Of a DNA stretch of 64,000 nt, positions 4,710-35,033 are shown one piece after another. The stretch is from a virus: the IMG/VR virus record IMGVR_UViG_3300028610_002211, positions 40,306 to 104,305 of that record; one strand, written 5' to 3'. Each line of letters opens with the position of its first letter. The first letter of the stretch is position 1. Both the position numbers and the translations under genes were made by a program. The notes beneath the pieces are model-generated. The model saw only the letters and a list, made by a program, of their open reading frames with translations. It was not told the DNA's origin and made no database searches.

Positions 4710-4744
4710 TTGACATATGAGTTAGAGGTGGTTATATTAGTAGT
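4710..4744 (+). promoter_or_regulatory. sigma70-type promoter, predicted +1 on the ATG at 4745
   Basis: TTGACA-17 nt-TATATT, then 6 nt, then ATG. Confidence 0.7.
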
Positions 4745-4987
4745 ATGGCAAGAACAACAGCAATCGAATCGAAAGGAGTAACGGGAATGAAAAGGGCCGT
4801 CTGCTGTAAGTGTCGGGTCATGCGCAACACTGACGAGATGGATCGGACTGTGGGGTGTTTGGGTCAAATCGTTTGGTTGTGTCAACGGTGCAGCAATGCA
4901 CAGCACAAAGAGCAAATTCGCGAAATCTTAATTGATGCTGAATCACAAGGTGTCGATATAGATAAGTGGAGACACCTGCTCGACTAA
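4745..4987 (+). CDS. Small Zn-finger-like protein (second, SD-led start at 4787)
   Basis: CCKC...CQRC; AAGGAG upstream of the in-frame ATG at 4787; GC-rich hairpin follows at about 4995-5026. Confidence 0.65.
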   Translation: MARTTAIESKGVTGMKRAVCCKCRVMRNTDEMDRTVGCLGQIVWLCQRCSNAQHKEQIREILIDAESQGVDIDKWRHLLD

Positions 4988-5614
4988 TCCCCAACGGGGC
5001 GCGGGTTAAACCGCGCCCTACTTCTTTAGTTCGAGTTAAAGCCGTCTTAAACCCGTTCTAACGCTCTAACTCTTTAACTCAACCCGTGGGTATTAACTAG
5101 GGTTAGAAAGGAGCACAGAAGGGCGTATAACGGCATCACAATCGATCCTACCCCCACTGGCAATCCGATGTGGGCCGGGGGGCGGTCTGGACCCATGTCT
5201 TACTGCCGCGCCCAACGCTCAACTTTTTCACCAAAAGCCGTTTTTAACCCATATAATCGAGTTAGAGACCTAACTATTTCACAAAAAATTTTTAACTCGC
5301 AAAGCCAAACTTTCCCAACATCTGAGTTAGACACTACCTAACGACTTAACGACTTAACGACCTAGCGACCCAACCGCCACCCCCCTTTTAACCAATGCCC
5401 ACCTACAAAACCACAGAATAACCCACAAGCCGCTTTAACACCCTAAGACAACCAACCCTATACCCAGATGTTAGAAAGGCACACACAAAGCCCTAATGCG
5501 ACTCCAGGCCTTCGGCCTACCTACGCGCTCGGGCGCGCGCGTGGGAAACGAAGAAAGGGAAACAAAAAAGCTTCCGGAGGTGCCGGGAGGGGGCGAAGAA
5601 AAGTGAGAAAAATG

Positions 5615-5643
5615 TTGACATATGAATTCGGTGTGTCCATACT
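5615..5643 (+). promoter_or_regulatory. sigma70-type promoter for the early operon
   Basis: TTGACA-17 nt-CATACT upstream of the 5.7-10.7 kb gene run. Confidence 0.6.
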
Positions 5644-5760
5644 TGAGAAAGCGAGGGGGGTTGAAAGGAATGAGCCTATGGACGTTTAAGGAACTGGCTT
5701 GGTATAATGGGCGTTTAGATGGTTTGGTGTGGATACTTAAGAAGATGGTGGAGTGAAATA

Positions 5761-6138
5761 ATGGTTGAAGTAATTTCAAAAGGAAAACTCAAAGTCGTTT
5801 GTAAGGTTTGCAGTTCTTTGTTGTGTGCCGAATTTGGGGAAGCGCAAGTTCTCGATTCATACCCTACAACTTGGCGCATAAAGTGTCCGGTGTGTTTTAA
5901 TTGGGTCGTGTTGTCGGCCGTAGAATATGTAAAAGCGGTTATTGAACGATCCGAAGAGGCGAAGAAGGAACCCATACTTTTGTGTAACGCCAAAATGAGT
6001 CGTTGTAACCCAGAGTTTACAAAAAACGAAAAGTTATATATCGATGGTGAGAAGTTCATAGACGAAGACGATGAACTCGCAATCGAAAAACTTATAGAAG
6101 AAGACGAGAAAAAGGAGCAAGCCAATGAACAACGTTAA
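5761..6138 (+). CDS. Zn-ribbon protein
   Basis: CKVC...CPVC; GGAG SD. Confidence 0.6.
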   Translation: MVEVISKGKLKVVCKVCSSLLCAEFGEAQVLDSYPTTWRIKCPVCFNWVVLSAVEYVKAVIERSEEAKKEPILLCNAKMSRCNPEFTKNEKLYIDGEKFIDEDDELAIEKLIEEDEKKEQANEQR

Positions 6139-6349
6139 AGAGATGATCGAGAAAATCAAAGCTGAAATCAAACGTAGTGAGAAGGAGAAAGCGGCGTTAC
6201 CCACTTGGAACAAGACTGAGTTATCACGGCGCGTTAATGCTCGTTTGGTTGGTAAGTTGAACGGATTGCGTTTTGCGTTGGACTTGTTGGAAGGGAAGAA
6301 AGAGGTTGACCCGAAAACGTTTACAGTTCCGAAAAATAGAGGTGACTGA
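6125..6349 (+). CDS. Small helical protein, 'GKLNGLRFAL' paralog family
   Basis: One copy of the module; AAGGAG SD. Confidence 0.7.
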   Translation: MNNVKEMIEKIKAEIKRSEKEKAALPTWNKTELSRRVNARLVGKLNGLRFALDLLEGKKEVDPKTFTVPKNRGD

Positions 6350-6684
6350 TGAACGAGGAAATCAAAGCTGAGATCAAACGTGTTGAGGAAAGGCAGGATA
6401 CGCATTCTATTCTTTCTGCTTGGAATAGATCCGAGTCATCATGGCGTATATCATGGCGTATTACTGCGGCGCATTTAATTGGTGAGTTGAACGGGTTGCG
6501 TTTTGCGTTGGGTTTGCTACAAGGAAAAATCGAGGAAATCGAGACCGAGATCAAACGTGTTGAGAAAAAACAAAGTGACAATTTTGCCTTTTCATCATGG
6601 CGCATCGTTGCTCGTTTAAAGGGTAAGTTGAACGGGTTACGTTTTACGTTAGATTTGTTGAAAGGAAAAGGGGATGAACGATAA
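6349..6684 (+). CDS. Small helical protein with two tandem 'GKLNGLRFAL' modules
   Basis: The internal duplication is visible in both protein and DNA. Confidence 0.7.
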   Translation: MNEEIKAEIKRVEERQDTHSILSAWNRSESSWRISWRITAAHLIGELNGLRFALGLLQGKIEEIETEIKRVEKKQSDNFAFSSWRIVARLKGKLNGLRFTLDLLKGKGDER

Positions 6685-8964
6685 GCAATGTGAAGAATTC
6701 AGAAGGTTAGCAGAAGAAAGCTCGATGTCAATTGGTGGAATGGATGGTGTGAATGACTGCGAAAATATGCTTTTAAAGTTCATGACTCCGGAGTTTATTA
6801 TTGGATACTCGAAGTGGAAAGAAAAGCGTGATAGGTTGGTGAAAGTCGCAAGAGAAAAGCTGTTGACAGAAGGGAAAGAACGAAGGCAAACGCGCGATCC
6901 ACCAAAATTTAATCGTCCGAAGATAAGACCACAAAAAGAAGGAAGGAAAGAGTGACTGATGGTTGAATATAAAAAGGTAGAGTGTTTATGTGGGGAAATG
7001 ATACACACTAGCGTTTGGGGGACGTGGGTTGATGACCAGTGGTTTTGTGGAGAATGTCTAGTTAAAGCAGTTAGTAAAAACAAAAAAACAATCACCAAAA
7101 TCGAAGAAGAGATAATTGGTATTGAGGAAAGTTTGTTAATCACTCAAAACAACGGAACAAGAAACTTAAGAGAACACGAAAACAAAATCAAGTTGGTTGG
7201 GTTTGGGAAAGGTGAATTAAGAGGGTTGCGTTTTGCTTTAGGGTTGTTGAAAAGTGAAAAATAGTTGACCTGAAAACGAAAGGTGGAAGGGATGAACATT
7301 GAACAAGGACTTCAACGTTTAAAAGAATTGTACGGGAATCCGGGAACTTTGTTCTTGGGTGATGCTACAGGTTCACGAGCTCGACTCACTCCGGGTCAAC
7401 AAGTGGCAATCCTCATTGATGGTCCTTACCTAATAGGTACGGTTCAACGTCATCGTACACAGCGCGGGAAAATGATGATTAAGTACCACGATGGACGAAG
7501 AAATTGGATAATCTCACCTGACAAAAACCAGGTGTTGATCGAATGGTATGATCAAATGGTAAAAAGAAAGGTGTAAAAACTAATTGACCCGAAAACGAAA
7601 AAAGGGTTGTAAGCACGATCACAGCGTTAAGGTGAACGGCGTTTGCTGGGCGTGCTTAAAAAAGGGGTTAATGGTTTGCTTGTGTTTGGGGTGTGGGCAC
7701 AAGTGGAAAGAAAAACCAGGCCCAACCGAGTGCCCAGAATGCGCCGGATTCTATGTCAAAAAGGGGTGGTAAGAATGAGATGGGAAAATATATCTTTGTT
7801 GGATGAACCAATTGAATCTAAATTAGTTTTGTCTAAAGCCGAAACAAAAGTTTTGAAAAGAGCATATGATCTTTTAAGTAAAATTAAAAACAAATTAGAA
7901 GAAACTTACGGTGAAGATAAGGCCGAAAAAATACCATCTTGCGAACCTTGGATTTATGCAGAATCTTGGTTTAGATGTGCAATTGACGATTTGAGAGTTG
8001 ATGGAATTAAATTTCCGTTAAAGGATAATAAAAACCTCGTTTTCATTCCAAAACGAGTGAGACTTGGGTTTGAAATGAGAGAATTACCATTTAACCAAAA
8101 GCAGTTTATTGAAGTGACCGGATACATTGAAGGTGGTGACACATTAGACGCTTGCGTGTTTTGCGATTATTCGCGTGATAAGGAGTTTATCGAAAAAGGT
8201 TGCTCAATTGTCAAACTCGTTTGCGCGTTTTATCATCATCAGAGTTTTGAGGTTTCGTCAATCGGTTGTTGTCGAAAGTTCAGAGGATAAAAATGAGCAA
8301 GTATTACGTTTATTTGATAGCAAAAAAGCCGGGTTTTTTTCGTCGTTTGTTCAAGTTGCGCGGTAAAACATCAACCGTAATGAGTGACAATCCGGTTAAA
8401 CCAAAATTACCGAAAGGATATATCTTCTTTTCACTTATCGGTGAAGTGAGGGATAATGAGTAAAATTGACGAAAGCGTAAAAGACTCTACGTCAAAAAAG
8501 GATGGTAAGAAATGACACGTTTAGTGGAAACGTTGCTCGATATGTTAAGAACTGTCGAAAGAGTTTGGCCCGAGCTTGGCAAAACGGCCGAATGGTTTCA
8601 AGGGTATAAAGACGGGATCGAAGTGTCGATCCAAACGATCAAAACTAAATATAGAGAACGGGCGATGAGTCTGCAAAACGCCACTGATTTGCAGCGCGAA
8701 CAGTTAGTTGCAGCTCCACAAAAATACGATGTACTAGGCAACCTCAAAGACAAAGAGAAGCGGATAGCACGCGGGTTTGTTGATATTGGCGATTTGAGAA
8801 TCGGCGACGTTGTCCAGTTTTATCAATACGGATCGCTATTTGTTGACGAAATCGGTTGTTTTACCTGGTTGGTTATTCACTTGCCGGTTAGGGGAGCTGT
8901 TCAACTATCCCGATTGCACTTTGACGCTTTAAAGAACCGCACTACAGACGAAAGACGGGGATAA
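6674..8964 (+). CDS. Hypothetical genes 6674-6955, 6959-7264 (Zn finger plus GELRGLRFAL module), 7283-7576, 7584-7772 (Zn ribbon), 7775-8290, 8293-8463, 8512-8964
   Basis: Tightly packed + strand ORFs with overlapping stop/start codons. Confidence 0.6.
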
Positions 8965-9425
8965 TGAAATCCATACAACCATTATGGTGTTTACAATTAC
9001 CTCTTCAACAACAATCCGTTTTGTTTTTGGCTTCTAGGGGGCCGGATGGAATTGACAAGGCTCACCCCTGTAAAGATGTTCAGCGCGCGTATAGAGCTAC
9101 GGTATTGATTGGAGCCAAACAGGGTAGGTTGTTACATTGGGGTGAATGTGGTGATGGTTTTATAAGTTTAGATCTTTTTAGCGACGATAAAAAATGGTCT
9201 CAAGTTTGCAATCGGTTTTTTCCATTTGTCGACAGTCTTCCCCATCATTATTATATGCATCTTTTATATGGAGTTGAAATACTTGGATATAAACACCCTG
9301 ACATACGATTCAAAAATCGGTGGAATGACTTTTACAAACGAGGAATAGAGGAATTACACTTAATGCCGGAGTCCGAACTTCAAATGGAATTGCGCCTTAA
9401 TGATTGGGATCAAAAATGGTGGTAA
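8964..9425 (+). CDS. Conserved phage protein of unknown function
   Basis: LPLQQQSVL..ASRGPDG, LPHHYYMHL..GVEILGYKHP and LHL.PES motifs resemble a recurrent phage family (recalled, not searched). Confidence 0.6.
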   Translation: MKSIQPLWCLQLPLQQQSVLFLASRGPDGIDKAHPCKDVQRAYRATVLIGAKQGRLLHWGECGDGFISLDLFSDDKKWSQVCNRFFPFVDSLPHHYYMHLLYGVEILGYKHPDIRFKNRWNDFYKRGIEELHLMPESELQMELRLNDWDQKWW

Positions 9426-9443
9426 TTTTAAAAAGGAGACAGA

Positions 9444-10394
9444 ATGAAAAGTGAAAAAAGAAGACGACTTTATAAAGGCGATTCTGTAACAATGATGTTA
9501 GGAGAAATGGGTTATACCGAAAGATGTTGTTCAAATTGCCTTTGTTTTGAAATCGAAGAAGACGAAGAAGAAGAAGAAAGCGATTTGGGTTGGTGTAAAG
9601 CCAATCGGATTTGGCTTCAGATAGATAGCAAAGGGCGCGGTTGTTGCGAAATACACACTAAAAAAAACCCTAATCCAAGCGAAACAAGATCCCAAAAAGG
9701 TGAAAAAATGAAGTGTCCAGATTTGAGCCCGCCCGGCATGAGGGTAAGTTGAACGGGTTATGTGAATACTGCGAAAAGCCGATCGGCGCTAATCGCGTAT
9801 CGCGTGATGGTTTTGATTTTTGTTCGGCGAAATGTTCGGAACAATCCCGCGATTCTGATACTTGCGAACATTGCGGGAAATCAATCGACGGTGAACCGGT
9901 TATTTTTCGTTCCCCTGTCCACGCTCCTTTGTTTTTTTGTTCTGTTACTTGTCAACAAAAATTTGCCGAAGAAAAACGATGAAAGTCAAAATCCACATAA
10001 CGCGTGGAAGGTTTATTGAACTAAGCGACGATCTTTCATGGGAGATCTTCATTATGCGCGCCGCTCAAGTTGTGAAAACGAAAAGACACGAACAAGGATT
10101 ACAACATACTGTAACCCTTGATTGGATAGCTAACATGTTTGGGTTTGACAATTGGGCGTTGTTAACGAAAAATAGAAAGACGAAATAATGAGTCAATACC
10201 AAAAAAAATTGTTCACCGTTGTTGTCGAACAAAGGCAAAGGCTTGAAATCGAAGTAGAGGCGTTTGATGCGCGCGGTGCGCGCGGGCAAATCCAAGACAA
10301 GGGTGTAGTCGAATATGAGAAACATCGGCCAGACTGGCGCCTTGTGGGGGCGCCTGAGTTGATTGTGGTAAACACCTATGAGACGAAAAAATGA
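9444..10394 (+). CDS. Small genes 9444-9752 (Cys-rich), 9713-9982 (two TRASH-like CxxC..FCSxxC repeats), 9979-10188, 10188-10394
   Basis: CEYC...FCSAKC and CEHC...FCSVTC repeats; coupled starts and stops. Confidence 0.6.
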
Positions 10395-10663
10395 TTTATC
10401 AAAATCGAGACTTAATCATGAGTGCCTTGTATGGCGCAGCGCTTTTTGTAGGTGGCAAGCCCAATCCTGCTACCCTTGCCCGGGTTATGGTCGTTCAACG
10501 GTCGCAAGTTGGACGCTGGATTGGGGGCGAAGCGGTTCCTAATCAACGTAATCTCGATCAACTTAATTTACTTTGTAAGTTTTGGAAAAATCACTTGTTA
10601 GAAGTCAAGAAATTAAGAGACGATCTTGATGTGGTTTTGCTACTAGACCGTTTGAAGCGGTAA
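10391..10663 (+). CDS. XRE/Cro-like helix-turn-helix protein
   Basis: NPATLARVMVVQRSQVGRWIGGEAVPNQRNL fits the HTH_3 pattern. Confidence 0.65.
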   Translation: MIYQNRDLIMSALYGAALFVGGKPNPATLARVMVVQRSQVGRWIGGEAVPNQRNLDQLNLLCKFWKNHLLEVKKLRDDLDVVLLLDRLKR

Positions 10664-10686
10664 CGAATCCCCTAAATAATTTTTTT

Positions 10687-10781
10687 AAAATAAAAGTGAG
10701 AATTTTCTTGACATCTGAATTAAGAGGTGTTAAGCTTATAATATGAACAGCGCAACACAAAACACGGGAGCAAGCAAAATG
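10687..10781 (+). promoter_or_regulatory. Promoter/leader cassette, copy 1
   Basis: A-tract, TTGACA(10708)-tctgaatta-TGt-TAAGCT, TATAAT, ATG(10743), AGCGCAACAC, GGAG, ATG(10779). Confidence 0.85.
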
Positions 10782-11333
10782 AACACGGTAACACACAGCG
10801 AAATCAAAAATGAAATTTGTGCCCAAACCCCCCGTTTTGTAGTGGCCAAAGTTGCCGGGCGCTTTGTTCAATTCACGATCCGCAGTAACGGCCAATGGAT
10901 CGAAAAAGGCAAAAAAATCGGGCTCGGGCTCGAATTGGTTTGGAGCTAAAACGATGAAAAACGAAAGCGTAAAAGTCACCAAAGACGTTGAAATCATACC
11001 TTGCGCGGGCAAGTGGTATGCTCACGTTATAGGTTCGCGCAAACACAACATTGGTCATCTTTGGAGTCGTCCGGTTGCACGCAAGCGCGCGATCGAAATT
11101 CAAAGTGAGATCGACGAAGGACTTATCAAAATCGTTCAACAAGGTGTAAAATGAAAACTGAAACCGATAAAGAAATCAACAAGAAGAAGGTTGCAAGGTT
11201 GCGCGAAGAAATGGCCGAACTATACAAGAAGTACACGAAGATGCAAAACGGTCCTGAACGCGAAAAACTTTGGCGCAAAGAGCGGGCATTGTTAGAGGAA
11301 ATACACGGATTAGAACAACATTTGTCTTTTTAG
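10743..11333 (+). CDS. Small early genes 10743/10779-10949, 10954-11154, 11151-11333
   Basis: Directly downstream of cassette 1; coupled ORFs. Confidence 0.65.
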
Positions 11334-11343
11334 GGTGATCTTC

Positions 11344-11435
11344 AAAAATAAATGTCACTTTTTTCTTGACTTCTGAATTAAGCGTGTTAAACTTATAATA
11401 TGAGCGCAACACAAAACACAGGGGACAAGGCAATG
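11344..11435 (+). promoter_or_regulatory. Promoter/leader cassette, copy 2
   Basis: TTGACT(11366)-16 nt-TAAACT, TATAAT, ATG(11400), AGCGCAACAC, ATG(11433). Confidence 0.85.
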
Positions 11436-11783
11436 AAAAGTCAAATCGAGAAAAAAAGTCGCGAAATCAAAAGTCTTTTTGAGACCAGCACTGTTTCAAT
11501 TACTATCGCACAAGGGAGTATTTATTTTTCGATTTGGGACAACAGAAAAGAAGATCGCGAAGAAATGGCAATCGTCAAAGCGAAAGCGGTTAAGTGGATT
11601 ATGGAAAACGACGATCGCAAATGGTTGCATGCGAAATCTCGCGGTTATCGTGTTTGGTGGTGGGGCGGAAACCAAACACGCAATATGGGTTTGCGTTGTG
11701 GTATTAAAACCAAATTGACAGACGCTGAGCACCAAGCTGTTGTCGCTGGACCGGATGCGTGGCGCGCGATACAGGAAAAATAA
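11400..11783 (+). CDS. Hypothetical early protein (alternative start 11433)
   Basis: ORF follows cassette 2. Confidence 0.7.
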   Translation: MSATQNTGDKAMKSQIEKKSREIKSLFETSTVSITIAQGSIYFSIWDNRKEDREEMAIVKAKAVKWIMENDDRKWLHAKSRGYRVWWWGGNQTRNMGLRCGIKTKLTDAEHQAVVAGPDAWRAIQEK

Positions 11784-11864
11784 ATGTCACTTTTTTCTTG
11801 ACTTCTGAATTAAGCGTGTTAAACTTATAATATGAGCGCAACACACAAAGGAGCAAGCAAAATG
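11776..11864 (+). promoter_or_regulatory. Promoter/leader cassette, copy 3
   Basis: Nearly identical to copy 2 over about 65 nt; ATG(11832), AAGGAG, ATG(11862). Confidence 0.85.
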
Positions 11865-12125
11865 TTTGGACAAAACAGAATTGAAATAGTCAAAGAGACC
11901 CGTGATGATGGAACCGGCGCTTTTGAACGTTTGACCGATTCAGCGTTTTACTCGGTTAATCCCGAGCGTTGGACTAATGAAGCCGGGCGCCGATCTTGTC
12001 AGTTGGTTCTTTACTTCGAGATCCCGAGCGGGACAAAAGTTCCTGTGTTGGTAGCCGAACAAGATGATAGCTTTGGCCGGGCGCAGCTGTGGGCGCATGT
12101 CGCCGAATGTACCGCGCTAAGGTAA
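11832..12125 (+). CDS. Hypothetical early protein (alternative start 11862)
   Basis: ORF follows cassette 3; GC-rich hairpin gggcgcc/gggcgccc at about 12144-12163. Confidence 0.7.
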   Translation: MSATHKGASKMFGQNRIEIVKETRDDGTGAFERLTDSAFYSVNPERWTNEAGRRSCQLVLYFEIPSGTKVPVLVAEQDDSFGRAQLWAHVAECTALR

Positions 12126-12192
12126 ACCTTAACCCCCAATTTTGGGCGCCTTACGGGGCGCCCAGGGGCGTCTCGATTGTCTAACTTTTTTC

Positions 12193-12221
12193 TTGACATG
12201 TAAAATGGCTTGGTTCATAAT
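12193..12221 (+). promoter_or_regulatory. sigma70-type promoter
   Basis: TTGACA-17 nt-CATAAT before ORF 12238. Confidence 0.65.
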
Positions 12222-12237
12222 TGAGACAGGGTGAAAA

Positions 12238-14630
12238 ATGGCTAGTATTTTAGATCTCAGAATCTGTTTAGAAAAAGATGGTTGGGCGTTATACGATCCG
12301 AGCACAAAACAACATATTGAGCGCGGTTTAGACGAAAATGGTTTGATTGATCTCTATGGAAAAACGTTTGAACGTGTGGCGCGTGAAAGTGTAAGAATCG
12401 CGATCGAAAAAGCAAAAAAACAGTATTTAAAGGACACAAACTAAATGGGTTATCGAATTTACGATCTAGGTGTTTTGCCAAATGAGTTTTTACCTGAATT
12501 TGTTGCCGCTTTTTGCGATCAAAAACACAAAGGCGATCTACTTTTGGTTCACCCGATAAAAAATAACACCGAAAAACTTTTGATGATAAAATGTAAAAAG
12601 AGTCGTTTGGTATGTTATGCTAGTTGGCTCGATGGTTGGAAAACTGCAAAAGGGTTAATGGGGTTATCTCCCAAATGACCAAAATTGATTTTCTAAAAGT
12701 GTTTGTCACCAGAGAAAGAATTTATCGTTCGAATTCACATTATAGGGGCGATTTGAGAGCTATTAAACACGCGGTATTATTAAACGGGTGGACGATACCG
12801 ATCCAAATGTTAACGGCGCTCAAAAAGATTCTACCGGACTCCACACAAGTAATTATACACAATCCGCTTTGTGGTTTTGATATTGCGTTAGAGTTTAGAT
12901 ATGAAAGTGGTCAAATGAATGAAAGTGGTCGAATAACATTTTATAAAAGCTTTGTTGATGAGAAAAGTTACTTTTATAGCGATCCAAAATCAAATTTGGT
13001 GGATAAATAGGAGCGATAAAGAGATGAAGTTAAAAGATTTTACAGTGATACAAGTTTGGGGGGTTGATAAAAATGACAAAATTTTTATTTTAGCTCAAAT
13101 TATCCCACAAGACGACGAAAGAACAATTATCGATTTGAAGAAAATCGTTGAATCATTTAAACCTAAATCAAAAGAAGAAATGGAGTTTTTGAGAAAATGA
13201 TTTTTACAACTTTGAAAAGCGCTTTCGAAAAGTCACCAAAAATAGAGAGGCCTGAAACAATCGCTTTGCTATCTGGGGTTGATTGTTTTGTAATTATTGC
13301 AAATCGCGTTTGGTTAAAAACCGTTGGTGAATTTTCGATCTGTGATCATAATTGGAAATCTTGGGTTAAAGATAGTTTGCCAATGGCGTATTGTGATGAT
13401 GAACTTGACGATTGTGACGATTTGGTATTGAGCAGTTGCAACTTTTTGGTATTGCCAAACGAAAAACGTAAATTGGCCCAAAGACAATTGGATCGAATTT
13501 GGCGTAATATCCCAAAGCCACAAAAACCAGGTTCTGTTAATTTGCCGGTTGCTCTAAAGTGTGGTGAATGTAATGATCCATTATCTGGTACCGTCTATTT
13601 TTTAAAAGGCGAAGAACCGGAGTTTGTGATTTTTGTTGAGCGTTGTCGTTGTAACGATAACGACGAATAAACAGAGGAGCAAAAAAATGACTATAGAAGC
13701 AATCGAAAAACTACACCTTTCACAAAAATTGACACGGGAAGAAATCGATTTTGCAAAAGAGGTTGCAAGGGTGAAGCGGTGTTACTCTGATTGTTTGAAA
13801 GCTGCAATGTCAAATAAAGGTTGGAAACTCGATCCAATCAAAAGTCAGTTCACTTTACAAAAGAAGAAAAAAAATAAGAATTTTATTGATGTTGATGTTT
13901 TGAACGGGATAACAAACCCACAAAGCGGCAAAGTTTTGGTTGAAGCTGGGTTTATCGATCAACGGATTTGGGATCTTGCTCAATATGCTTTTTTAAGTAT
14001 TCCATCGTGGGACAGGTTTTTTGGATCTATTGCCGCCGCACTTAGGTAAAAAAATGGATCCGAAAAAACTTGACATAACATTGAGCTTTAAAGGTAGTGC
14101 TGCAAACGGTGGGACAAAGATAACCGGGCGCGATAACATCATTGCTTGGATGGCAGAATGCAAAACAATCCTCGACAAACTCGATCAGATAACCAACGAT
14201 CACGATCTCGCTGCTTTCTTCGGTGTTCTTTGCGAGTTTGAATTTACCGATTTTAGAAATGAACTTGAGCGAGCGTTTAAAGCCTGCAAAAATGTTTTAG
14301 AAAGCCCATTTTAGAAAGGGGTTGTAAATGGATAGTGAATCGATTGCAACTTTGATTGCAGGATTTTTTATGGGTGGATTTTTTGGAGTTTGTTTGACCG
14401 CGCTTTGGCTTAAAACGAAAAGCGGTTTTGCTTCGTTGTCTTTGTCTTTCAAACCGAAAGACAAAAAACAAGTTCCCACCCTTTTTTCTCCGGTTACTAG
14501 TTGCAGACATTGCGGATCGAATAATATTTTAATCGAACAAGCAAAAGGTTTGTACCGCTGCGAACATTGTTTTTTCTTGGGTCGCTTGTTTGTTGATCCT
14601 ACAACCGGAGAACCCCGCAAATTTTCCTGA
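12238..14630 (+). CDS. Operon of small hypothetical genes (12238-12444, 12445-12678, 12675-13010, ~13023-13200, 13197-13670, ~13687-14049, ~14054-14314, 14328-14630 with a TM helix and Zn ribbon)
   Basis: Contiguous + strand ORFs with SD sequences. Confidence 0.6.
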
Positions 14631-14642
14631 AAGGAGTTTTTA

Positions 14643-14886
14643 ATGATTCCAACATACACAGAAATCGATCTTGAACCTTGGCTTGGCGCTTCGGGCGTTG
14701 AACGCTTCTCAACGTTAGACACACTACAAGGCTATTTCGAGCCCGAAAACCTCAAAGCAATCCTTGGGCCCGGATGTTGACCTTGAAAGGGCACAGCTGG
14801 CTTGTGAGCAAGCTACAACGCAATGGAAACAGCAACACGAAGACGATCCGTGCAGTTCTTGCCCGGTTGGGCGTTGGATGTCATAA
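14643..14886 (+). pseudogene. Small gene interrupted by an apparent frameshift near 14770
   Basis: AAGGAG-led ORF stops at 14780; the +1 frame continues as PDVDLERAQLACEQ...CSSCPV. Confidence 0.35.
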
Positions 14887-14922
14887 AAGAACCGATCAAA
14901 ACCAGGTTGTAAAAATTATTTT

Positions 14923-15014
14923 AAAATAAATGTCGTTTTTTTCTTGACATCTGAATTAAGGGGTGTTAAGTTTATAGTATGAACAGCGCAACACACAAAG
15001 GAGCCAAGACAATG
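14923..15014 (+). promoter_or_regulatory. Promoter/leader cassette, copy 4
   Basis: TTGACA(14944)-17 nt-TAAGTT, TATAGT, ATG(14979), AGCGCAACAC, AAGGAG, ATG(15012). Confidence 0.85.
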
Positions 15015-15188
15015 AAAAGCGAAGAAATGATAGCCAAAATTGAAAGTGAAAAGAGGGAAGTTAATCGGCGCCTTAAGGATTACGATCTGGCGCAAACTAC
15101 ACCAAATAATTTGACAATCAGGGTGATAAGCCGTTTAAAAGGCAAGTTGTCTGGATTAGAGTTTGCCTTAAAACTGTTGAAAAAATAA
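14979..15188 (+). CDS. Small helical protein, divergent 'GKLNGLRFAL' family member
   Basis: RLKGKLSGLEFALKLLK. Confidence 0.7.
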   Translation: MNSATHKGAKTMKSEEMIAKIESEKREVNRRLKDYDLAQTTPNNLTIRVISRLKGKLSGLEFALKLLKK

Positions 15189-15431
15189 ATGAAAGAGGCA
15201 AGCAAAATGAAAATCCAAATCGCTAGTTTATACGCAAACGAGAAAAACAAAAAAAAGGCCGATCGGATCAAAAAGGCACTACAAGGAAAAACGTCTTTTA
15301 ATTTGCAAGTGTCGGCGGTCAACAAGGGTGGAAACCTCATTATCACAGTTTCGAGTAGCTTTGCCGAAAACATGGTTGAATTGGCTGAGATGGTTATGAC
15401 TCTTCTTGTTGACTTGATCGACGGTGAATAA
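15189..15431 (+). CDS. Hypothetical protein
   Basis: ORF with a likely start at MKIQ after GAGG. Confidence 0.55.
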   Translation: MKEASKMKIQIASLYANEKNKKKADRIKKALQGKTSFNLQVSAVNKGGNLIITVSSSFAENMVELAEMVMTLLVDLIDGE

Positions 15432-16710
15432 AATGAAAAACGTAACACAAGAAAGAAAAATTTTTTGGTACAATCGTTTCGATTTTTTGGCGGTAGCAAT
15501 TCTTTTTTGGGCCACTATCAAAAAGAGCGCTTTCAACAATGCGCGCTTGGTTTTCAACGGCGAAACCCGCGTTGTTAGGGGTCGGACCGAATATTCACCC
15601 AACATCACAGAATACGGTTTTGAAGTTGTTTGCGACATCAACGATCATATCGAAATCCCTGGACACCGCTTTGTTGGAATCGCCGTAAACAAAGGACCGG
15701 GTTGGATCGTTACCAACTTCACTGACGATTTCAAATTCACCAAAGAGGTTGTTGACTCTTTGGATCCACAACGTTGTGATATGTGCGGACACAAAAGAGA
15801 CCGGGTTCGTTTGATGATTCTCGAAAACACCGATACCAAAGAGCTTGTGATCGTGGGTGGCAGCTGCGCAAAGAATTTTCGCAACGTCAATCTTGAAGAC
15901 TTGGTCCGCAAAATGACAATTTTCTCAAGCAACTTTGGCTGTATGGACCCTGATGAATTGGGCGGTTTTGGCGGCGGCGGTCGTAGAATTTTGGATTTGG
16001 TTGAGTCGATCGCGGTTGGCGAATTGTTGATCTCTCGACTCGGGTACACCTCAAGAAAAAAAGCAGATATAGGAATGACTTATGCTACTTCAGATTTGAT
16101 CGCCGATTATTTCGCGAGCAAGGGTAAGTCTTACAAATCCATCAAAGCCGTTATGGACCGCTCAAGGTTAGACCTTGCTCAGCGCATTAAAGAGCTTACA
16201 AACGGCGGTCTGAAGGCGCTTAGGGCTCATTTCGAGCGCGCTAACGAGCGCCGTTGGTCTGAATTCAACAGCAACATGGTTGTTTGGTTGTCTTGTAAAG
16301 AAGACGTTCCGCTTGGTGTCGCTGCTTACCTCGCTTTTGTCAACCTCGAAGGCGCCAAAGAATCGGACCGGACCGATCAGAAAGTTGCCGGCTTCGACGG
16401 TGCACCGATCAAAAAAATGTCAGATTTCGGTTGGTTCAAAGTGGTAAACGTTAGAGCAAAGGAGAATGATTACACTGGTAACACTGATTTTTGTTTCACT
16501 TGTTTGAACGCCGATTCACAAAAACTTTGGTTCAAGGTTGGCGAGAATAGCGTTGCAAATAAAGCTTATGATCAAGTTGTCTCGGGTGATGGGGTTAACC
16601 AAGATCAAGAGATCTGGATCGATGTTCGTGGCAAATTGACCCGAAGCAAAAGTGAAATTGCTTTTGCTTCGCACATCAAATTCAAAAAAGTTGAAATCCG
16701 CACAATCTAA
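15424..16710 (+). CDS. Conserved phage protein with a Zn-binding motif and possibly a C-terminal OB-like fold
   Basis: CDMCGHKRDR...VGGSC motif; 428-aa ORF; beta-rich C-terminus. Confidence 0.6.
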   Translation: MNKMKNVTQERKIFWYNRFDFLAVAILFWATIKKSAFNNARLVFNGETRVVRGRTEYSPNITEYGFEVVCDINDHIEIPGHRFVGIAVNKGPGWIVTNFTDDFKFTKEVVDSLDPQRCDMCGHKRDRVRLMILENTDTKELVIVGGSCAKNFRNVNLEDLVRKMTIFSSNFGCMDPDELGGFGGGGRRILDLVESIAVGELLISRLGYTSRKKADIGMTYATSDLIADYFASKGKSYKSIKAVMDRSRLDLAQRIKELTNGGLKALRAHFERANERRWSEFNSNMVVWLSCKEDVPLGVAAYLAFVNLEGAKESDRTDQKVAGFDGAPIKKMSDFGWFKVVNVRAKENDYTGNTDFCFTCLNADSQKLWFKVGENSVANKAYDQVVSGDGVNQDQEIWIDVRGKLTRSKSEIAFASHIKFKKVEIRTI

Positions 16711-16721
16711 ACAATTTCGAA

Positions 16722-16761
16722 AAGCAAACAAAGGGTGCGGGAAACCGCGCTCTTTGTCTTT
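16722..16761. terminator. Bidirectional intrinsic terminator
   Basis: aaagggtgcgg-gaaa-ccgcgctcttt, A-rich on the left and T-rich on the right. Confidence 0.7.
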
Positions 16762-16897
16762 GCAGAATGTCCAGGGCGCCCTTGTGCGCGCGCCCGCGCG
16801 CGGGCGCATACTCGGGCAAGGGTTAAACACAACGGCCGTTAGAACGGCGCACAAAGGTTCTGAGAAGGAAGTGAGATAAACAGATCCTAAAGGATAA
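16722..16897 (-). ncRNA. Candidate sigma54-driven structured small RNA 1
   Basis: Non-coding; bounded by a sigma54 site and a terminator; arms ccttgtgcgc (16780) / gcgcacaaagg (16847). Confidence 0.4.
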
Positions 16898-16905
16898 TAT
16901 CTAAA

Positions 16906-16923
16906 TTGCAATCTGCGTGCCAA
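16906..16923 (-). promoter_or_regulatory. sigma54 (RpoN) -24/-12 site
   Basis: Minus strand reads TTGGCACGCAGATTGCAA = TGGCACG-N4-TTGCA consensus. Confidence 0.75.
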
Positions 16924-16942
16924 AGGAAAAATAATTTTTTTT

Positions 16943-17027
16943 AAAATAAAAGTGAGAATTTTCTTGACATCTGAATTAGCTGTGTTAAGTTTATAATATG
17001 AGCGCAACAATAAGGAGCAAGACAATG
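16943..17027 (+). promoter_or_regulatory. Promoter/leader cassette, copy 5
   Basis: TTGACA(16964)-16 nt-TAAGTT, TATAAT, ATG(16998), AGCGCAACA, AAGGAG, ATG(17025). Confidence 0.85.
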
Positions 17028-17512
17028 AACGTTAAAATGAAAAAAGGAGAAACAGGTTATTTCAAGGGTGACAAAATACAATTCACCGGAAAAGAAGAAG
17101 TTCTTTACGGTGGGCTTTTCGATGAGTTTGTTTATCTCGAAGGTTATAAAAAAGCAGCTAAAAAAGCATAATGCACAAAGGAGCAAGTAAAATGAACACC
17201 ACTAACAATAATAAAAATACTGTCGAAGAAAAAAGAACAACAATCGAGGTTTTCGACCCTAAAAAATTCGATCACAACCAAAGGTGGTTTCAACCGATCA
17301 ACAATTTTGCTTTTCTTGGACAAGCTTCCGGTATGGCGCTCGCTCACGATCCGATTTATAGGGATAGTCTATGGGCCGAAACAGTACCGCACCCTAATTT
17401 TTTGCGCGATGTCGAGAGAAAATTTCCCGGTCATGTGTTGGTTTATGATGATATGGGTCATGGACGCGATTGGATTCTCTCGATCAAAGGTTCTATTCCT
17501 TCGAACGAATAG
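16998..17512 (+). CDS. Small genes 16998/17025-17171 (absent from the ORF track) and 17171/17192-17512
   Basis: SD-led ORFs; the second reuses the leader fragment cacaaaggagcaag. Confidence 0.65.
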
Positions 17513-17671
17513 CGTTCAACGCCCTTGTGCGCGCCCCTGTGGTAACTTTTGTTTGTCTCCTGTGTTGCGCTAACCATGGGGATTTGAGTCGAACAGGAGC
17601 GCGCACAAGGGTGTTGAACCCGTTCAACAGCTTCAATGAACCTGCCAAAATAAACAGATCCTAAAGGATAA
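17510..17671 (-). ncRNA. Candidate sigma54-driven structured small RNA 2, carrying a copy of the cassette leader in its loop
   Basis: 27-bp near-perfect inverted repeat (17514-17540 / 17593-17619); the loop reads AGCGCAACACAGGAGACAAACAAAA on the minus strand. Confidence 0.45.
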
Positions 17672-17679
17672 TATCTAAA

Positions 17680-17697
17680 TTGCAATTCACGTGCCAA
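17680..17697 (-). promoter_or_regulatory. sigma54 -24/-12 site
   Basis: Minus strand reads TTGGCACGTGAATTGCAA. Confidence 0.75.
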
Positions 17698-17716
17698 GAA
17701 AAAAACCACTTCTGTT

Positions 17717-17809
17717 TAATTTAAATGTCGTTTTTCGGTTGACATCTAAATTAGAATGATTAAGCTTTATAGTATGAGCGCAACACAAAACACGGGAGAA
17801 AACAAAATG
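17717..17809 (+). promoter_or_regulatory. Promoter/leader cassette, copy 6
   Basis: TTGACA(17739)-16 nt-TAAGCT, ATG(17774), AGCGCAACAC, GGAG, ATG(17807). Confidence 0.8.
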
Positions 17810-18741: not shown

Positions 18742-18837
18742 CGCGCGCTTGTTTACATTTAGAATCTGTACATCCGCTTCAACCTTCGATATAAATTGCG
18801 TTTTGACTTTTTAGTTAAAGAGTGTTAAAACCTGTTC

Positions 18838-19338
18838 ATGAAAATTCTAAGACGAAAAAACATAAAAAGCTTTCCGGGTTATCAAATTTCAAACTTTGGA
18901 ACAGTTAGGAGAGAAGTTTATAAATTGTACGGGATTAAGGAAACGAGGATATTTCCTCATATCAATAATGGTTATCAAATTGCCAATTTAAAAAGCGAAT
19001 CTGGGGAGCAAAAGAAAGTGCCTATTCACAAACTTGTTGCAAAAGCTTTCGTTTCCGGCTGGTTTGAGGGCGCAATTGTTGATCATATCGACGAGAATAA
19101 GCAGAATAATTTTTTCAAAAATCTTCGCTGGGTAACTCATCGCTTTAATTCCTCTCGACGTAAGCGCGATCTGCCTTTGAATGTTTCAAAATTTCGAAAT
19201 CGAAATAGTTATATTGTTCGAGTTTATTTCGGTGGTGAAATCGTTTATTTGGGCTCATATAAGACGGTTGAAGAAGCTTCGAGGGTTGCTGAAAGGGCGC
19301 GCAAGCAAGCGGAAAAAGGGGAAAAACCAACTCGTTAA
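18838..19338 (+). CDS. NUMOD4/HNH homing endonuclease with an AP2-like C-terminus
   Basis: YQISNFGTVR; IHKLVAKAF..VDHIDENKQNN..NLRWVT; YLGSYKTVEEA. Confidence 0.9.
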   Translation: MKILRRKNIKSFPGYQISNFGTVRREVYKLYGIKETRIFPHINNGYQIANLKSESGEQKKVPIHKLVAKAFVSGWFEGAIVDHIDENKQNNFFKNLRWVTHRFNSSRRKRDLPLNVSKFRNRNSYIVRVYFGGEIVYLGSYKTVEEASRVAERARKQAEKGEKPTR

Positions 19339-19470: not shown

Positions 19471-20434
19471 ATGGCAAGGGTTAAAATAATCGACTTTGAC
19501 GCGTTGCGCAGCGCGATCGAAGATTTCAAAGCGGGGTTGCTCGAATTTGCCGAAAATGGGGGTGATTTAAACAAGCTTGTTAAAAATTCAGAAATGGTAT
19601 TGAACCGTTTGACCGGCGAAGAAATGGAAATCTGTATTGTTGTCCAGCACGAAAAAACCCCACAACCAGAATTTGCGATTGTGAAAGGCGCTGTTTATCG
19701 TCAATCAAAGCGGGGCAAAACACACCTATTTCTTTTGACTGGGCACCGTGGCAAGGCGTTTTGTGGAGTCTCGATTGTTGATACAAGCCTTGTTTTATCT
19801 CCAAACGTAGCGGATATTTGCTCCGATTGTGCTTTAGCTGTTAACGATTTAGATGATATTTAACAGTTTTTATTTTCATATATCTGTATTTTCTTAACAT
19901 ATGTTTCACATTTCACGTGAAACATTTCTTGATTTATAAATTGGATTGTGTAAAGCTCACAAAATGGAGGTATCAATGAACGAAAACAGAAAAACAAAAG
20001 AAAAGTCAGAAGATAGCGGGGCGCCCGAACAGGTCGAAAATGAGCTCAAAAAAGAAGAACCATCGTTTACACCAAACGAAATTTTGGAACCGCTTGGGTT
20101 TGTTGAACAACAATTGACCGATGATCAGAGTAATTTGCTCGCTTTTTTTCAATTAACACTGTACGAAAAACCGCGAAAAATCGATCTTGACGCGTCTGTA
20201 ACAGCTGGATTTGACGAAAATGGGACTTATCTTTTAGTTTTTGATTTTGAGATTACGGTATTTATTGACGTTTGTGATGTTCATATCGGGTCTTATGACA
20301 TTATTTTAGACTACGAAAACAGAAATAAGTTTGCCATAATCTTTAAAGCCATTGTAACCTTTTTGTCACAATCGGCAAAACTCTATGTTGCAACACAGGC
20401 TTTACTTGACGAGAAAAAAGAAAAACCAAACTAA
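19471..20434 (+). CDS. Hypothetical genes 19471-19863 and ~19976-20434
   Basis: GGAGG SD for both; promoter TTGACT-17 nt-TACAAT at about 19406. Confidence 0.65.
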
Positions 20435-21760: not shown

Positions 21761-21840
21761 TATACCGCAGGTGTCGCCAATTTTCAAGTAAAAAATATAA
21801 CTTTTTTGACTTTTGTTTTAGGGTCGGATAACATCAAATC

Positions 21841-22112: not shown

Positions 22113-22742
22113 ATGGTAAGGGGGAAATTTATTGTTTTAGAGGGGGCAGACGGGGCGGGGACAACGACGATTGCGAATTATTTAACGGATAAACTAGAAA
22201 CTAAATTTGGCAAAAGGTCTGTTGTGTTAACTCATGAACCATCAGATTTTGATACTGGTGTTTTTATTCGTGAAATTTTACGAAGTGAAAAAACGGTTTC
22301 GCAAGGTTTGGCAATGGCTTATCTGTTTATTGCGGATCGTATCGATCACACAAAACGCCGAATTATTCCAGCGCTCGAAGCTGGCAAAATGGTTGTTTGT
22401 GATCGTTATTACTTTTCAACTCTGGTTTATCAATCTGTCAAAGACGATTTTTCAAGTTCATGGAAAGAGTTAGAGGGTTTATCTCCTTTAATGCGGGGGC
22501 ATATAGAGCCGGATTTATCTTTGCTTTTGGATTGTAGAATTGACACTTTGCGAGATAGGCGTGAAAATCGAAATGAAGTAAAAGAGATTTATGAAAACGA
22601 TGGTTATCAAAAGATAGTTGTTGATCTTTATCGTGCTTTGTTTTCTAGGTATAGATATAATTCCGAGATGATTGACGCCGAAGAAAGTCTTATTTCCGTA
22701 AAGGCTAAAACGTGGGCAGTGACTAAAGAACTTTTTTCTTGA
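22113..22742 (+). CDS. tmk: Thymidylate (dTMP) kinase
   Basis: FIVLEGADGAGTTT, THEPS, LFIADRIDH, VVCDRYYFSTLVYQ, PDL. Confidence 0.93.
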   Translation: MVRGKFIVLEGADGAGTTTIANYLTDKLETKFGKRSVVLTHEPSDFDTGVFIREILRSEKTVSQGLAMAYLFIADRIDHTKRRIIPALEAGKMVVCDRYYFSTLVYQSVKDDFSSSWKELEGLSPLMRGHIEPDLSLLLDCRIDTLRDRRENRNEVKEIYENDGYQKIVVDLYRALFSRYRYNSEMIDAEESLISVKAKTWAVTKELFS

Positions 22743-22775
22743 CTTGTGAAATAGAATCTGATAAAATCCCTTCCA

Positions 22776-25080
22776 ATGTCTAAAAACATTAAGAGAATTT
22801 ACTGTGTTGACTGTGCTTTTTGTCTTGTCGAACAGGGAAAAAAGCAAGTTATTTATACTTGCCGTTGCCGAGAAAGCGAGAAATACGATAAATGTGTTGA
22901 TCCTTGGGATACGTGTACGCAATTCAAACAACGAGTTTGTACAATGTGCCATGTTGAAGGTTTGAAAAACCCTTGTCCACTTTTACACGGTGGAGAAAGT
23001 TAGAGGTTTGTTTTGGAAACTAATTCAAAAATATTTTGTGATAACGAAAAACACAGAATTACAAAAACCGCAAATGGCAAATTTAAAGTTTACGACAAAG
23101 AGAAAAAGACAACGATCGGTGAATTTGACACTTTGCGAAAAGCAACAAATTCAACAAAGGTTGTCGAGGAAACTGAGATTAAGCCCGAATGGGTTGAACC
23201 CAAACCGCCGAAGAAAAAACCAAAAAGAAGATAAAAGTAATTTGTTGACTTCTGAATTAGAAATTTTATTGACTTGTAATCGAAACCGATCTATATTGGA
23301 TCTGTTACAGAAAGCCATTTTGTGAAAAAACCTCCTACTAGCCCGGTTAACGCCGGGCACTATCAAGAGGTTTCGTGATTTTTATTGACTTCTGAAATCG
23401 AGGGGAAAATGCAAATTGATCTATTTGAACGAATCAAATCTGTTTTGATACAGAAAGGTTGGCAGTATTACCGAAATGAGGATATGTGGACCACTGAAAA
23501 AACGTTAACGTTTGAAAGTGTCGCTGTAACAAATGAAGCTTTGATCTCGATTATGAATACAGACAGCCCTGGCTTAATTGGTCTCTTTTTCACCTATATA
23601 TTGAAAAAACCAGATGTGTTAAAAGATATTTTTGATCTTTTACCAAATAGTTTTTTTAACGAAAATTGGATCCAAGCATAAAAAAATTTTATAACTTGTG
23701 AATCAGGTTGGAGGTAAAACCGTGGTAATCGATACAAAAGAAATGATGTTGGCGCGTTTGCGTGAAAGTTTGCGCGATTATGGAATCAGACACAAAACCG
23801 GGCGAGAATTAACCGATGGTGAAATCTTGCAAGTTTGCGATTTTTTTTGTACCGGATTCACTTTGTTAGCCGATAAATTCCAGTCAATATCGGACGAAGT
23901 TGCGATAATTTTCTCAACCATCGGCTCCAGTTTTAACGATCTTGGCCTTGTAGTTGATGAGAAAAACAGGAAAGCAAATTAAACGCTAAATACAAAGTGG
24001 TTAAAAAATCAGAATCGTTTTTGGTTTGGGTTTGATCGCTGTGAAAAAAAAGAAAAGTAAAACACGTAGAATATTGCTTGGTGGTGATATTGTAGAAACA
24101 ACTTTACCACCAAAATATATTCTTGGAGAATACGACAAGAAAAATGGTATCTGGTACTATTGTCTGAAAGGCTCAATTTTCACAAAACATATTGACTGTA
24201 GAATACGCGTTGTGATTTCTCGTTATACAATCGATCAAATAAACGGCAAATTAGACCTTCAAAAACAGTTTGGAAAACCACCAAATTTTCACACTGAATT
24301 GAAGCGCTATAAGTTCAAAAATTTCAAAGCAACCATCGGCCCGGTTGTTGAGTTGAAGGCGATAGATTCTGTTGATGAATGGCTCGATTATCTTGATAAT
24401 GAGCTTACAAACGATGAATTTAAAATAGCTCGTTTACGTGAAATCTTGACCCATTAGACATTTATTTCTGGTCTCGAAGCAATTTCTAATCATCTGAATT
24501 GGTAAAGTGTTGAAATTGTTGTACGTTTTTTGCATTTTTGTAACGTTTTTTCTACTAAATTAAATTACGAAAACAGTTTTTTCTTTACTTTTGAAATAAA
24601 ACTGTTATCTTTAGTAGTAGAAAGGAGGCGCGAAATGCGTTCTGAAAAAGAAAAAGATACTGATTTAATGACTTTCCGAGCCATTTTTGCGCTCGAAGTT
24701 GGCGGGGGTAGAATCGAGATCAAAGCTAAAAACAAAAAAGGAGCTTGGGAAATATTGAAGAAAATAGAGCCTAAAGCTTTCTTAATGATCAAAAGTTTTG
24801 AAGAAATCGGTTGTTGCTAATGGTGCAAGATCATCACAAAATTAAAATAACGTTAAAGCGTGTTTTGGCGGGCGAGAAAGGTTCGAAGTGTCTTTCGCTT
24901 TCTGCCTTTACCGGTGGTGTATATCCCGAAGATGGTATTGTTATCACGGCAGGGACCGGCGTTGTTACTCAAAGTTGTTACCTTCCAAATTCTGATCTTC
25001 AAGCGGTGTTAATTCTCAAACCCGGGGAAATAATGACCGCTAAAAGCTGGGATACTACCCCCATACCACCAAAAAAATGA
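22776..25080 (+). CDS. Hypothetical genes (22776-23003 Cys-rich, ~23013-23234, ~23409-23681, ~23722-23982, 24026-24457, ~24635-24820, ~24820-25080)
   Basis: + strand ORFs; no family recognised. Confidence 0.5.
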
Positions 25081-34121: not shown

Positions 34122-35033
34122 ATGACCGAAGAAGTGGCTTTAGAAAAGGCGGAAAGTGTTGGTGTTGAACATGAATACACCGATTTGGAAGTTAACGAAA
34201 TTTCAGTGGTAGATAGGCCAGCAAATCAAAAAGAATTTGCTGTAATCAAATGCGTTGGAAACAGCGCAACACAAAAAGGAGTGGAACCAATGGCCGATCA
34301 AGTAGCGAAATCTACAGAAGAGGCTGCTAATGTCGAAGTGGTTCCTGTCGAAGTGGCCAAGAACGATGATGACTCGGCCATGGAGCAGGCGCTTGAAAAC
34401 CTCGACACTATTTCGAAATCGATTGCGGGGTTAGCCGCTCAAGTCGAAGACGAAGAAGGCGGCAAAACCGAAACCGAAACAGAGGCGGAAAAGGCCGCCA
34501 AAAAAGAAACACCGGCAACGATCTTTGCCAACGCGTTGAAGGCAACCGGCGTTAAAGGCGAAGCGCTCAAAACCGCGCTCAAAAAGTACGAAAAAGTTTG
34601 TGCTTGTGGTTCGGCGACGGTTCAAAAGACCGAAACCAAAACCGAAACCGAAGGCGCCGAAACCGAAACCGAAGGGGACAACGATTTCATGGGGAATCTT
34701 GCGGCGGCGGTTACTAAAGCCAAGGTGTTGACCCCGAAACGGCTTGCGGCGTTAAAAGCGTTGCAAGAACAGTTGGCCAAGATGATCGGTGAAATGGAAG
34801 GAATCCCTCATTCCAAATCACCGAAAACCAAGGTTCCGAAAAACGCAAGTTTCGGCGCAAGCGGTCTAAGCACGATCACAAAAAGCTTCGAAACCATATC
34901 GACGGCGCTGAAAACGCTAACTGGTCGAATCGAACAGATCGAAAACACCCGTCAAGGATCGAAAAGCCTTGGCGAAAGCGGCACTGTAACAACAAAAAAG
35001 GCGGATAAAGATCTTTGGGACAACGTTCTGTAA
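34122..35033 (+). CDS. Capsid scaffolding protein with an N-terminal protease fragment; internal start at 34290
   Basis: EISVVDRPAN, then an acidic coiled coil with TETE repeats; AAGGAG before ATG 34290. Confidence 0.7.
   Translation: MTEEVALEKAESVGVEHEYTDLEVNEISVVDRPANQKEFAVIKCVGNSATQKGVEPMADQVAKSTEEAANVEVVPVEVAKNDDDSAMEQALENLDTISKSIAGLAAQVEDEEGGKTETETEAEKAAKKETPATIFANALKATGVKGEALKTALKKYEKVCACGSATVQKTETKTETEGAETETEGDNDFMGNLAAAVTKAKVLTPKRLAALKALQEQLAKMIGEMEGIPHSKSPKTKVPKNASFGASGLSTITKSFETISTALKTLTGRIEQIENTRQGSKSLGESGTVTTKKADKDLWDNVL

Follow-up and report, generated by a model that had tools for sequence, protein, structure and literature searches.

Two described systems come closest to the element reported here, a repeated promoter-leader cassette in which two start codons share one open reading frame and which recurs in a 64,000-nucleotide (nt) stretch of a viral genome, IMG/VR record IMGVR_UViG_3300028610_002211. 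This stretch (the window) comprises bases 40306-104305 of the 104,305-bp record, called G000, and all positions are in window numbering unless marked "genome". The PeSLs of T4-type phages (Arbiol et al. 2010, PMC2839356; Comeau et al. 2014, PMC4122927) are repeated blocks of ~100 bp with an AT-rich tract, a strong sigma-70-like promoter and, at the 3' end, a Shine-Dalgarno (SD) sequence and a start codon; they precede ORFans in a hyperplastic region, and their copies are mosaic, implying recombination. In Escherichia coli, SD-led mRNAs with a 5'-terminal AUG bind 70S ribosomes, are translated from that AUG and function in both capacities, leaderless and leadered (Beck, Fleming and Janssen 2016, PMC4965119); this AUG opens a separate short upstream open reading frame that either terminates ahead of the gene or runs into it in another frame. 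Further comparisons are offered by leaderless phage genes, such as lambda cI expressed from PRM, in which the start codon stands at the 5' end of the transcript, and by the lambda PR-cro region, where a -35 element, 17 nt, a -10 element, 6 nt and an ATG are followed 18 nt later by the SD-led ATG of cro. The transcription start point of lambda PR is the A of the first of these ATGs.

The cassettes of G000 are a variation on two themes already described, the PeSL-type early cassette and the SD-led mRNA with a 5'-terminal AUG, and the description of the locus in a first-pass annotation as a candidate for an undescribed system is in this respect too strong. The likeness to PeSLs extends to the layout, to the ORFans downstream and to the mosaic copies. 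Judged by its capsid protein, at most 32% identical to that of any isolate, the phage is not T4-like, however; its copies share no conserved stem-loop within the block (only a site at 19929 has a hairpin just upstream), although copies in a relative, G006, do have a hairpin, and the published PeSL descriptions do not include an AUG at +1 locked in frame with the gene. As in the E. coli messages, an AUG at the 5' end, here a predicted end, would share one mRNA with a canonical SD-led start, but rather than opening a separate upstream reading frame it is in frame and stop-free in 8/8 leaders of G000 and 4/4 of a relative, G001, and so extends the product; in addition, the element is a repeated phage cassette, and the evidence for it is evolutionary (a frame lock) and not biochemical. 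In lambda, by contrast, the frame of the 5' AUG is closed by TAA at the third codon and no extended Cro is possible. Leaderless genes differ in having a sole 5' AUG and no SD, whereas the cassettes keep a full SD-led start; candidate genes of the leaderless kind occur in G000 as well (18838, 22776).

A repeated cassette with two in-frame start codons

All seven ATG pairs listed in the first-pass annotation are present in the window, with distances of 42, 36, 33, 30, 33, 27 and 33 nt between the two codons, and every pair is in frame and free of intervening stops (Table 1). The first ATG lies 6 nt past the -10 hexamer in six copies and 7 nt past it in one (17774). The block has the make-up of a strong host-type promoter. 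Each copy begins with an AT-rich tract and a -35 element (TTGACA or TTGACT), followed by 16-17 nt that open with the conserved box TCTGAATTA; a TGn extension precedes the -10 hexamer, which reads TAAGCT, TAAACT or TAAGTT (TATATT at 4710), and the AT-rich spacer between this hexamer and the ATG (6 nt; 7 nt at 17739) takes the form TATAAT or TATAGT in homologous copies. Past the first ATG, a leader of 24-39 nt extends to GGAG (GGGG in one copy), and the second ATG stands 7-8 nt further on.

Alignment of the seven homologous copies, one of which lies upstream of the window, places their homology between about -60 and the second ATG, and the genes beyond are unrelated. The alignment is mosaic, indicating that the copies within this genome are related and recombining, and about five indel events separate them. 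Two are insertions of 3 nt following the ATG, another is a 3-nt difference ahead of the SD, and the copy at 16998 (cassette F) has a -2/-1 pair, whose two changes jointly preserve the frame.

Table 1. Coordinates of the cassettes and of associated features (positions in the window unless marked "genome"; distances are from first to second ATG).
Feature	Position	Strand	Details
Promoter with non-homologous leader	4710..4789	+	-35 4710-4715; TGg and -10 4733-4738; ATG 4745; SD ~4771-4776; ATG 4787; 42 nt, in frame
Cassette B	10708..10781	+	ATG 10743, GGAG, ATG 10779 (36 nt); drives 56-aa ORFan
Cassette C	11366..11435	+	ATG 11400, ATG 11433 (33 nt); drives 116-aa ORFan
Cassette D	11798..11864	+	ATG 11832, ATG 11862 (30 nt)
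Cassette E	14944..15014	+	ATG 14979, ATG 15012 (33 nt)
Cassette F	16964..17027	+	ATG 16998, ATG 17025 (27 nt); relative to cassette D, -2 nt before SD and -1 nt after SD
Cassette G	17739..17809	+	ATG 17774 (7 nt past -10), ATG 17807 (33 nt)
Eighth cassette, homologous, upstream of the window	genome 34562		first ATG genome 34596; 33 nt, in frame; MSSATHKGENK-M
Probable further double start	19929..19978	+	terminator-like hairpin, TTGATT-N17-TGt-AAAGCT, 6 nt, ATG 19964, GGAGG, ATG 19976 (12 nt, in frame); -10 weak
Candidate purely leaderless gene	18803..19338	+	TTGACT-N17-TAAAAC, 6 nt, ATG 18838; HNH/NUMOD4 homing endonuclease, domain from residue 6; no SD upstream
Candidate leaderless gene (2-nt leader)	22739..23003	+	TTGACT-N17-TGa-TAAAAT, 8 nt, ATG 22776; 75-aa Cys-rich protein; no SD
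Very stable hairpin, anti-leader	17505..17625	+	-64.7 kcal/mol, stem ~29 bp; directly after gene 17171-17512; interior is an inverted cassette leader
Promoter-less leader copy	34260..34292	+	17 nt identical; inside a 303-aa gene in scaffold position; codon phase kept (NSATQKG); SD, then in-frame ATG 34290

The arrangement is strongly enriched over chance. The pattern TTGACW-N16/17-TANNNT-N6-ATG has 7 matches in the window, compared with 0.03 expected from shuffled sequences, and the promoter pattern TTGACW-N16/17-TANNNT has 13, compared with 2.7 expected; among the plus-strand matches to the latter, 9/11 have an ATG 6-8 nt past the -10. In 1.74 Mb of unrelated viral contigs, used as background, 5 such configurations were detected, 2 of them in frame and none both in frame and stop-free, whereas the identical scan of G000 returned 8 configurations in 104 kb, all of them in frame and stop-free. 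The first-pass estimate of (1/3)^7 for the chance occurrence of seven in-frame pairs overstates the independence of the copies, with about five indel events among the homologous ones.

G000 encodes a terminase, portal, capsid, tail sheath, tape measure and baseplate, and is therefore a myovirus; no tRNA genes were found in it. There is no close cultured relative: identity to isolates reaches at most 26% for the terminase and 32% for the capsid, and the nearest isolates show 25-32% identity in these two proteins. The cassettes sit in a plus-strand block of small genes between the replication and structural modules, where most genes belong to no known family; Pfam yielded no family for the seven cassette-driven products of the window, and public gene calls start the 116-aa ORFan of cassette C at the second ATG. 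The product of the cassette upstream of the window (genome 34629-35450) is an ArdC-like anti-restriction protein with ArdcN and zincin metallopeptidase domains, a product that fits immediate-early expression; the relatives found by search are at most 43% identical and all come from unrelated phages.

Searches for close relatives of the region itself gave little. A megablast search with 8 kb of it against 50,697 phage records produced 0 matches, exact-pattern scans of viral and metagenome contigs with the leader and promoter of G000 gave chance single matches or none and no close relative with an identical leader, and a terminase profile search of metagenome contigs retrieved only short contigs lacking early regions. 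An 85%-identical homolog (P0002) was found on an ENA contig, the closest homolog contig. An Rfam search of positions 4000-25000 matched no family.

Leader length and reading frame in related phages

Relatives were found via the capsid and a terminase profile, and the whole records of six of them (G001, G002, G003, G005, G006 and G007) were retrieved. The capsid of G001 shares ~70% amino acid identity with that of G000, and the replication and structural modules of the two phages are 30-70% identical; their early regions have almost nothing in common, and the G000 region from 30.4 to 65 kb has almost no homologs in G001. G001 carries cassette families of its own, with a different leader and SD spacer, and the motif of this spacer was found among viral contigs in G001 itself only. 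Four of its copies start with ATG, 6-7 nt past the -10, and their SD-led ATG follows after 24, 30, 33 and 33 nt, always in register and with no stop between, whereas sister copies that start with ATA or ACG have leaders of 20, 23 and 32 nt. One of the ATG-started copies, c1, has undergone changes of -4 and -2 nt and has kept its frame, and thus is, with cassette F of G000, the second copy in which paired changes of non-codon length preserve the register.

In G006, nine cassettes share the extended -35 of G000, with ATA as first triplet, and like the copies of L198 they have a hairpin and T-run directly before the -35. The ATA-started leaders of this phage have lengths that are random modulo 3 (13, 21, 24, 26, 37 and 44 nt); one copy alone has an ATG close to its 5' end, and there the distance is 36 nt, in frame. 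One further case of an ATG at +1, again in frame (27 nt), was seen in L198/L229, a fragment of an unrelated low-GC phage, before a 24-codon hydrophobic open reading frame (ORF). G005 (34% GC) and G007 (59% GC) contain no recognisable repeated cassette.

Frame conservation in relatives had been put forward in the first-pass annotation as a check, with leader lengths random modulo 3 as the adverse outcome, and such randomness was seen in the ATA-started leaders of G006. In an unbiased scan, all ATG-started leaders were in frame and stop-free in G000 (8/8) and in G001 (4/4), over distinct lengths of 27, 30, 33, 36 and 42 nt in the former and 24, 30 and 33 nt in the latter. Altogether, ATG-started leaders are in frame in 13/13 cases, compared with 23 of 50 control promoters (distributed 23:11:16 modulo 3; Fisher p = 2e-4) and with 7/15 controls from the cassette families (Fisher p = 2e-3); the replication set alone, 5/5 in frame, gives a binomial p of 0.004. 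Among the leaders compared, the frame lock is restricted to those that start with ATG, in two phage lineages, and the frame relation looks selected, as it recurs in G001 with an unrelated leader and is absent from the ATA-started sister cassettes. What these comparisons add is that relatives lose the ATG, yet leader length modulo 3 tracks its presence.

Two side observations concern the leaders and promoters of these relatives. Many ATA-started leaders of G006 and G002 (G006 oriented 18287 and 90130; G002 oriented 314 and 6760) have a 5' hairpin with GGCAAA or GAAA in the loop, and the leaders of G000 and G001 have no hairpin but an AUG start; a 5' hairpin and a 5' AUG may be alternative ways of protecting or marking the mRNA 5' end. 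G001 also contains, in non-coding DNA, 3-4 tandem copies of a ~20-nt AT-rich repeat ending in TGTAAGCGC (L133 6250-6480; L138 ~9235-9290, equivalent to G001 109235-109290; L135 ~19640-19760), arrays that look more like iterons or operators than like promoters.

Predicted transcription start, probable decoding of the 5' AUG and alternative readings

Transcription is predicted to begin with the A of the first ATG, and this prediction is well supported. As proposed in the first-pass annotation, the ATG occupies the position expected for a sigma-70-type start: each -10 hexamer lies 16-17 nt from a consensus -35 and has a TGn extension. The distance is independent of the spacer. Other promoters of this type in G000 have unrelated spacers (agtagt, ctgttc, cacaaa, caaatc) with the ATG still 6 nt past the -10, and the leaders of G001, G002 and G006 begin with AT(G/A) 6-7 nt past the -10 whatever the spacer: TATATT, taaaac or taattta and ATG in G001; TATAAT, tgaaga and ATA in G006; TATACT, TATAAT and ATA in G002. 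A 5' end elsewhere, which would leave the first AUG absent or internal and unused, could arise if the TATAAT or TATAGT next to the ATG were the real -10, with the RNA starting ~7 nt later within the conserved GCGCAAC, or if read-through from upstream promoters dominated. A perfect TATAAT does immediately precede the ATG in 4/7 homologous copies, with TATAGT in the other 3, and the cassettes are densely spaced, few of them with a clear terminator just upstream; we nevertheless give this reading only a slim chance. As a -10, the TATAAT was rejected because it lies 22-23 nt from the -35, has no TGn and is missing from other promoters with an ATG at +1: it is lacking in the 4710 promoter, at 18803 and in all G001 copies, where the ATG still stands at 6-7 nt. 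In relatives other spacers take its place, and a promoter scan found no -35 paired with the adjacent TATAAT. Moreover, a transcript starting elsewhere offers no reason for a constraint on the reading frame.

The box directly 3' of the -35 (TCTGAATTA; TATGAGTTA at 4710; positions 4716-4724 and 10714-10722, with equal offsets elsewhere) is found in nearly all early promoters of G000, and its first part (TTGACWTCTGRA) is common to phages of 32% and 54% GC (promoters of G006 and L198). It may be a regulator site or reflect a preference of the host polymerase. The possibility that it acts as a MotA-like activator box serving the TATAAT was rejected, as the box also follows the -35 where no second hexamer exists.

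The leaders themselves are almost unstructured (minimum free energy of -1 to -6 kcal/mol over 60 nt), and the probability of being unpaired over nt 1-10 is ~0.8 in six of eight leaders, 0.67 for that of 4745 and 0.42 for that of 17774. They are rich in A and in CA/ACA. CA repeats enhance translation whether the mRNA is leaderless or leadered (Martin-Farmer and Janssen 1999, as cited in PMC9031893), and ACA motifs upstream of the SD are translation enhancers (PMC3879156).

From these patterns we infer the following course of expression. The phage would be a lytic myovirus in which early promoter-leader cassettes with a PeSL-like layout recur in front of fast-evolving small genes. Host RNA polymerase would start at the A located 7 nt past the -10, so that early mRNAs begin with pppAUG. 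Such an mRNA could be entered by 70S ribosomes binding the 5'-terminal AUG, as on a leaderless message, or by 30S subunits binding at the SD, the canonical route; with both AUGs in one stop-free frame, the same protein would be made with or without a hydrophilic extension of 9-14 residues. In our judgment the 5' AUG is probably decoded, giving each gene a double in-frame start, and is read by ribosomes often enough that only codon-sized changes of the leader survive. The double start is about as likely to be adaptive as the in-frame state is to be simply the one arrangement that is tolerated. An adaptive double start might bring fast or robust early expression, or protection of the 5' end by a bound ribosome; under mere tolerance, ribosomes starting out of frame at the 5' AUG would run across the true start, a problem that, by analogy, the third-codon stop in lambda would solve in another way.

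The shared N-terminal tag envisaged in the first-pass annotation did not hold up. The extensions of G000 (MSATHKGASK, MNSATQNTGASK, MSATIRSKT) differ from those of G001 (MGRNEKKGDSK, MGITKEIR, MESNEKKGETK), and cassette F reads its SD region in another phase, giving I-R-S in place of K-G-A; a conserved tag was rejected on these grounds, and a shared functional tag is unlikely. What appears to be conserved is the open frame, not the peptide. The earlier interpretation as a whole is thus partly supported.

Several observations weigh against decoding of the first AUG. The extension peptide differs between lineages and within G000, so no function of a long isoform is indicated, and the ArdC-like product aligns to its family from the second ATG onward. 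G002 and G006 carry ATA at the position of the first ATG, which implies that the AUG is dispensable for cassette function. With looser spacing (an ATG 5 or 8 nt past a -10-like hexamer), four out-of-frame sites appear, one at a non-cassette promoter of G006 and three at weak promoter matches in the AT-rich G005. Finally, independent events are few, ~4-5 in G000 and ~3 in G001, as copies within a genome are related and mosaic. An alternative is chance together with shared ancestry: AT(G/A) would simply be a conserved first triplet of the transcripts of this promoter family, duplication and recombination would have produced the copies, the small number of indels would be multiples of three by accident, and decoding of the first AUG would be negligible. 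The ATA in relatives, the mosaic copies and the unconserved peptide all agree with such a history, and the leader frame +2 is also nearly stop-free (1 stop, compared with 11 in frame +1). We consider this account rather unlikely: G001 replicates the pattern in 4/4 copies with unrelated leader sequence, its sister copies starting with ATA or ACG do not keep the register, compensating indels that are not multiples of three occur in two separate instances, the Fisher tests give p values of 2e-4 to 2e-3, and the background scan has no such bias.

Another explanation for the conservation of the leader involves the hairpin at 17505-17625. Its plus-strand RNA is complementary to the seven homologous leaders from the first AUG through the SD region, with pairing energies of -28 to -35 kcal/mol compared with -16 +/- 3.7 for shuffled sequences, and shows no such pairing with the leader at 4710. 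The hairpin may be what is left of an inverted cassette, or its RNA may silence early genes as an antisense transcript. The leader might accordingly be conserved mainly as an RNA operator, the target of this anti-leader RNA or of an early-gene shut-off protein, with the first AUG and its frame incidental. The pairing well beyond shuffled levels with exactly the homologous leaders speaks for an operator, as does the fact that ACA-rich enhancers are known targets of small RNAs (PMC3879156); an operator predicts no modulo-3 rule, however, and the rule also holds in the 4710 and G001 leaders, which lack the operator sequence. As a full explanation it is quite improbable, although an operator can coexist with decoding of the 5' AUG. 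A more elaborate combination would be an adaptive two-route module that insures early genes, including the ArdC-like one, through 70S/leaderless and 30S/SD initiation and is later silenced at all seven homologous leaders by the hairpin RNA covering both entry points, making up an on/off translation circuit for phage early genes; we regard this as a doubtful, speculative extension.

Leaderless candidates, other elements and implications

The phage appears to rely on leaderless starts elsewhere too, because the promoter type of the cassettes sits directly on genes that lack an SD. In the candidate leaderless genes (18838, 22776 and a third at genome 32026-32262, which encodes another small Cys-rich protein), the ATG is 6-9 nt past the -10. 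At 21806-22096, an ORF of 44 codons, doubtful as a coding sequence, follows a strong promoter that has an ATG at +1, and ~255 nt downstream a terminator hairpin (~22066-22096) precedes the thymidylate kinase gene (22113-22742); the unit, which had no Rfam match, may give rise to a small RNA or else to a small protein. The copy of the leader at 34260, which has no promoter and lies within a longer gene, points to the leader as a portable translation-initiation module that is compatible with coding and would serve there for a nested product.

If the 5' AUG is decoded as proposed, these cassettes would constitute evolutionary evidence, from uncultured phages, for in vivo decoding of 5'-terminal AUGs that is strong enough to shape the 5' leader, whose length would be quantised in codons. 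The resulting rule, that ATG-started leaders must be stop-free and a multiple of three in length and ATA-started leaders need not be, could serve to recognise leaderless-type initiation in sequence data alone. With two isoforms made from each gene, the annotation of start sites in phage early genes would have to be corrected, and the arrangement suggests compact expression cassettes that are independent of any single initiation route.

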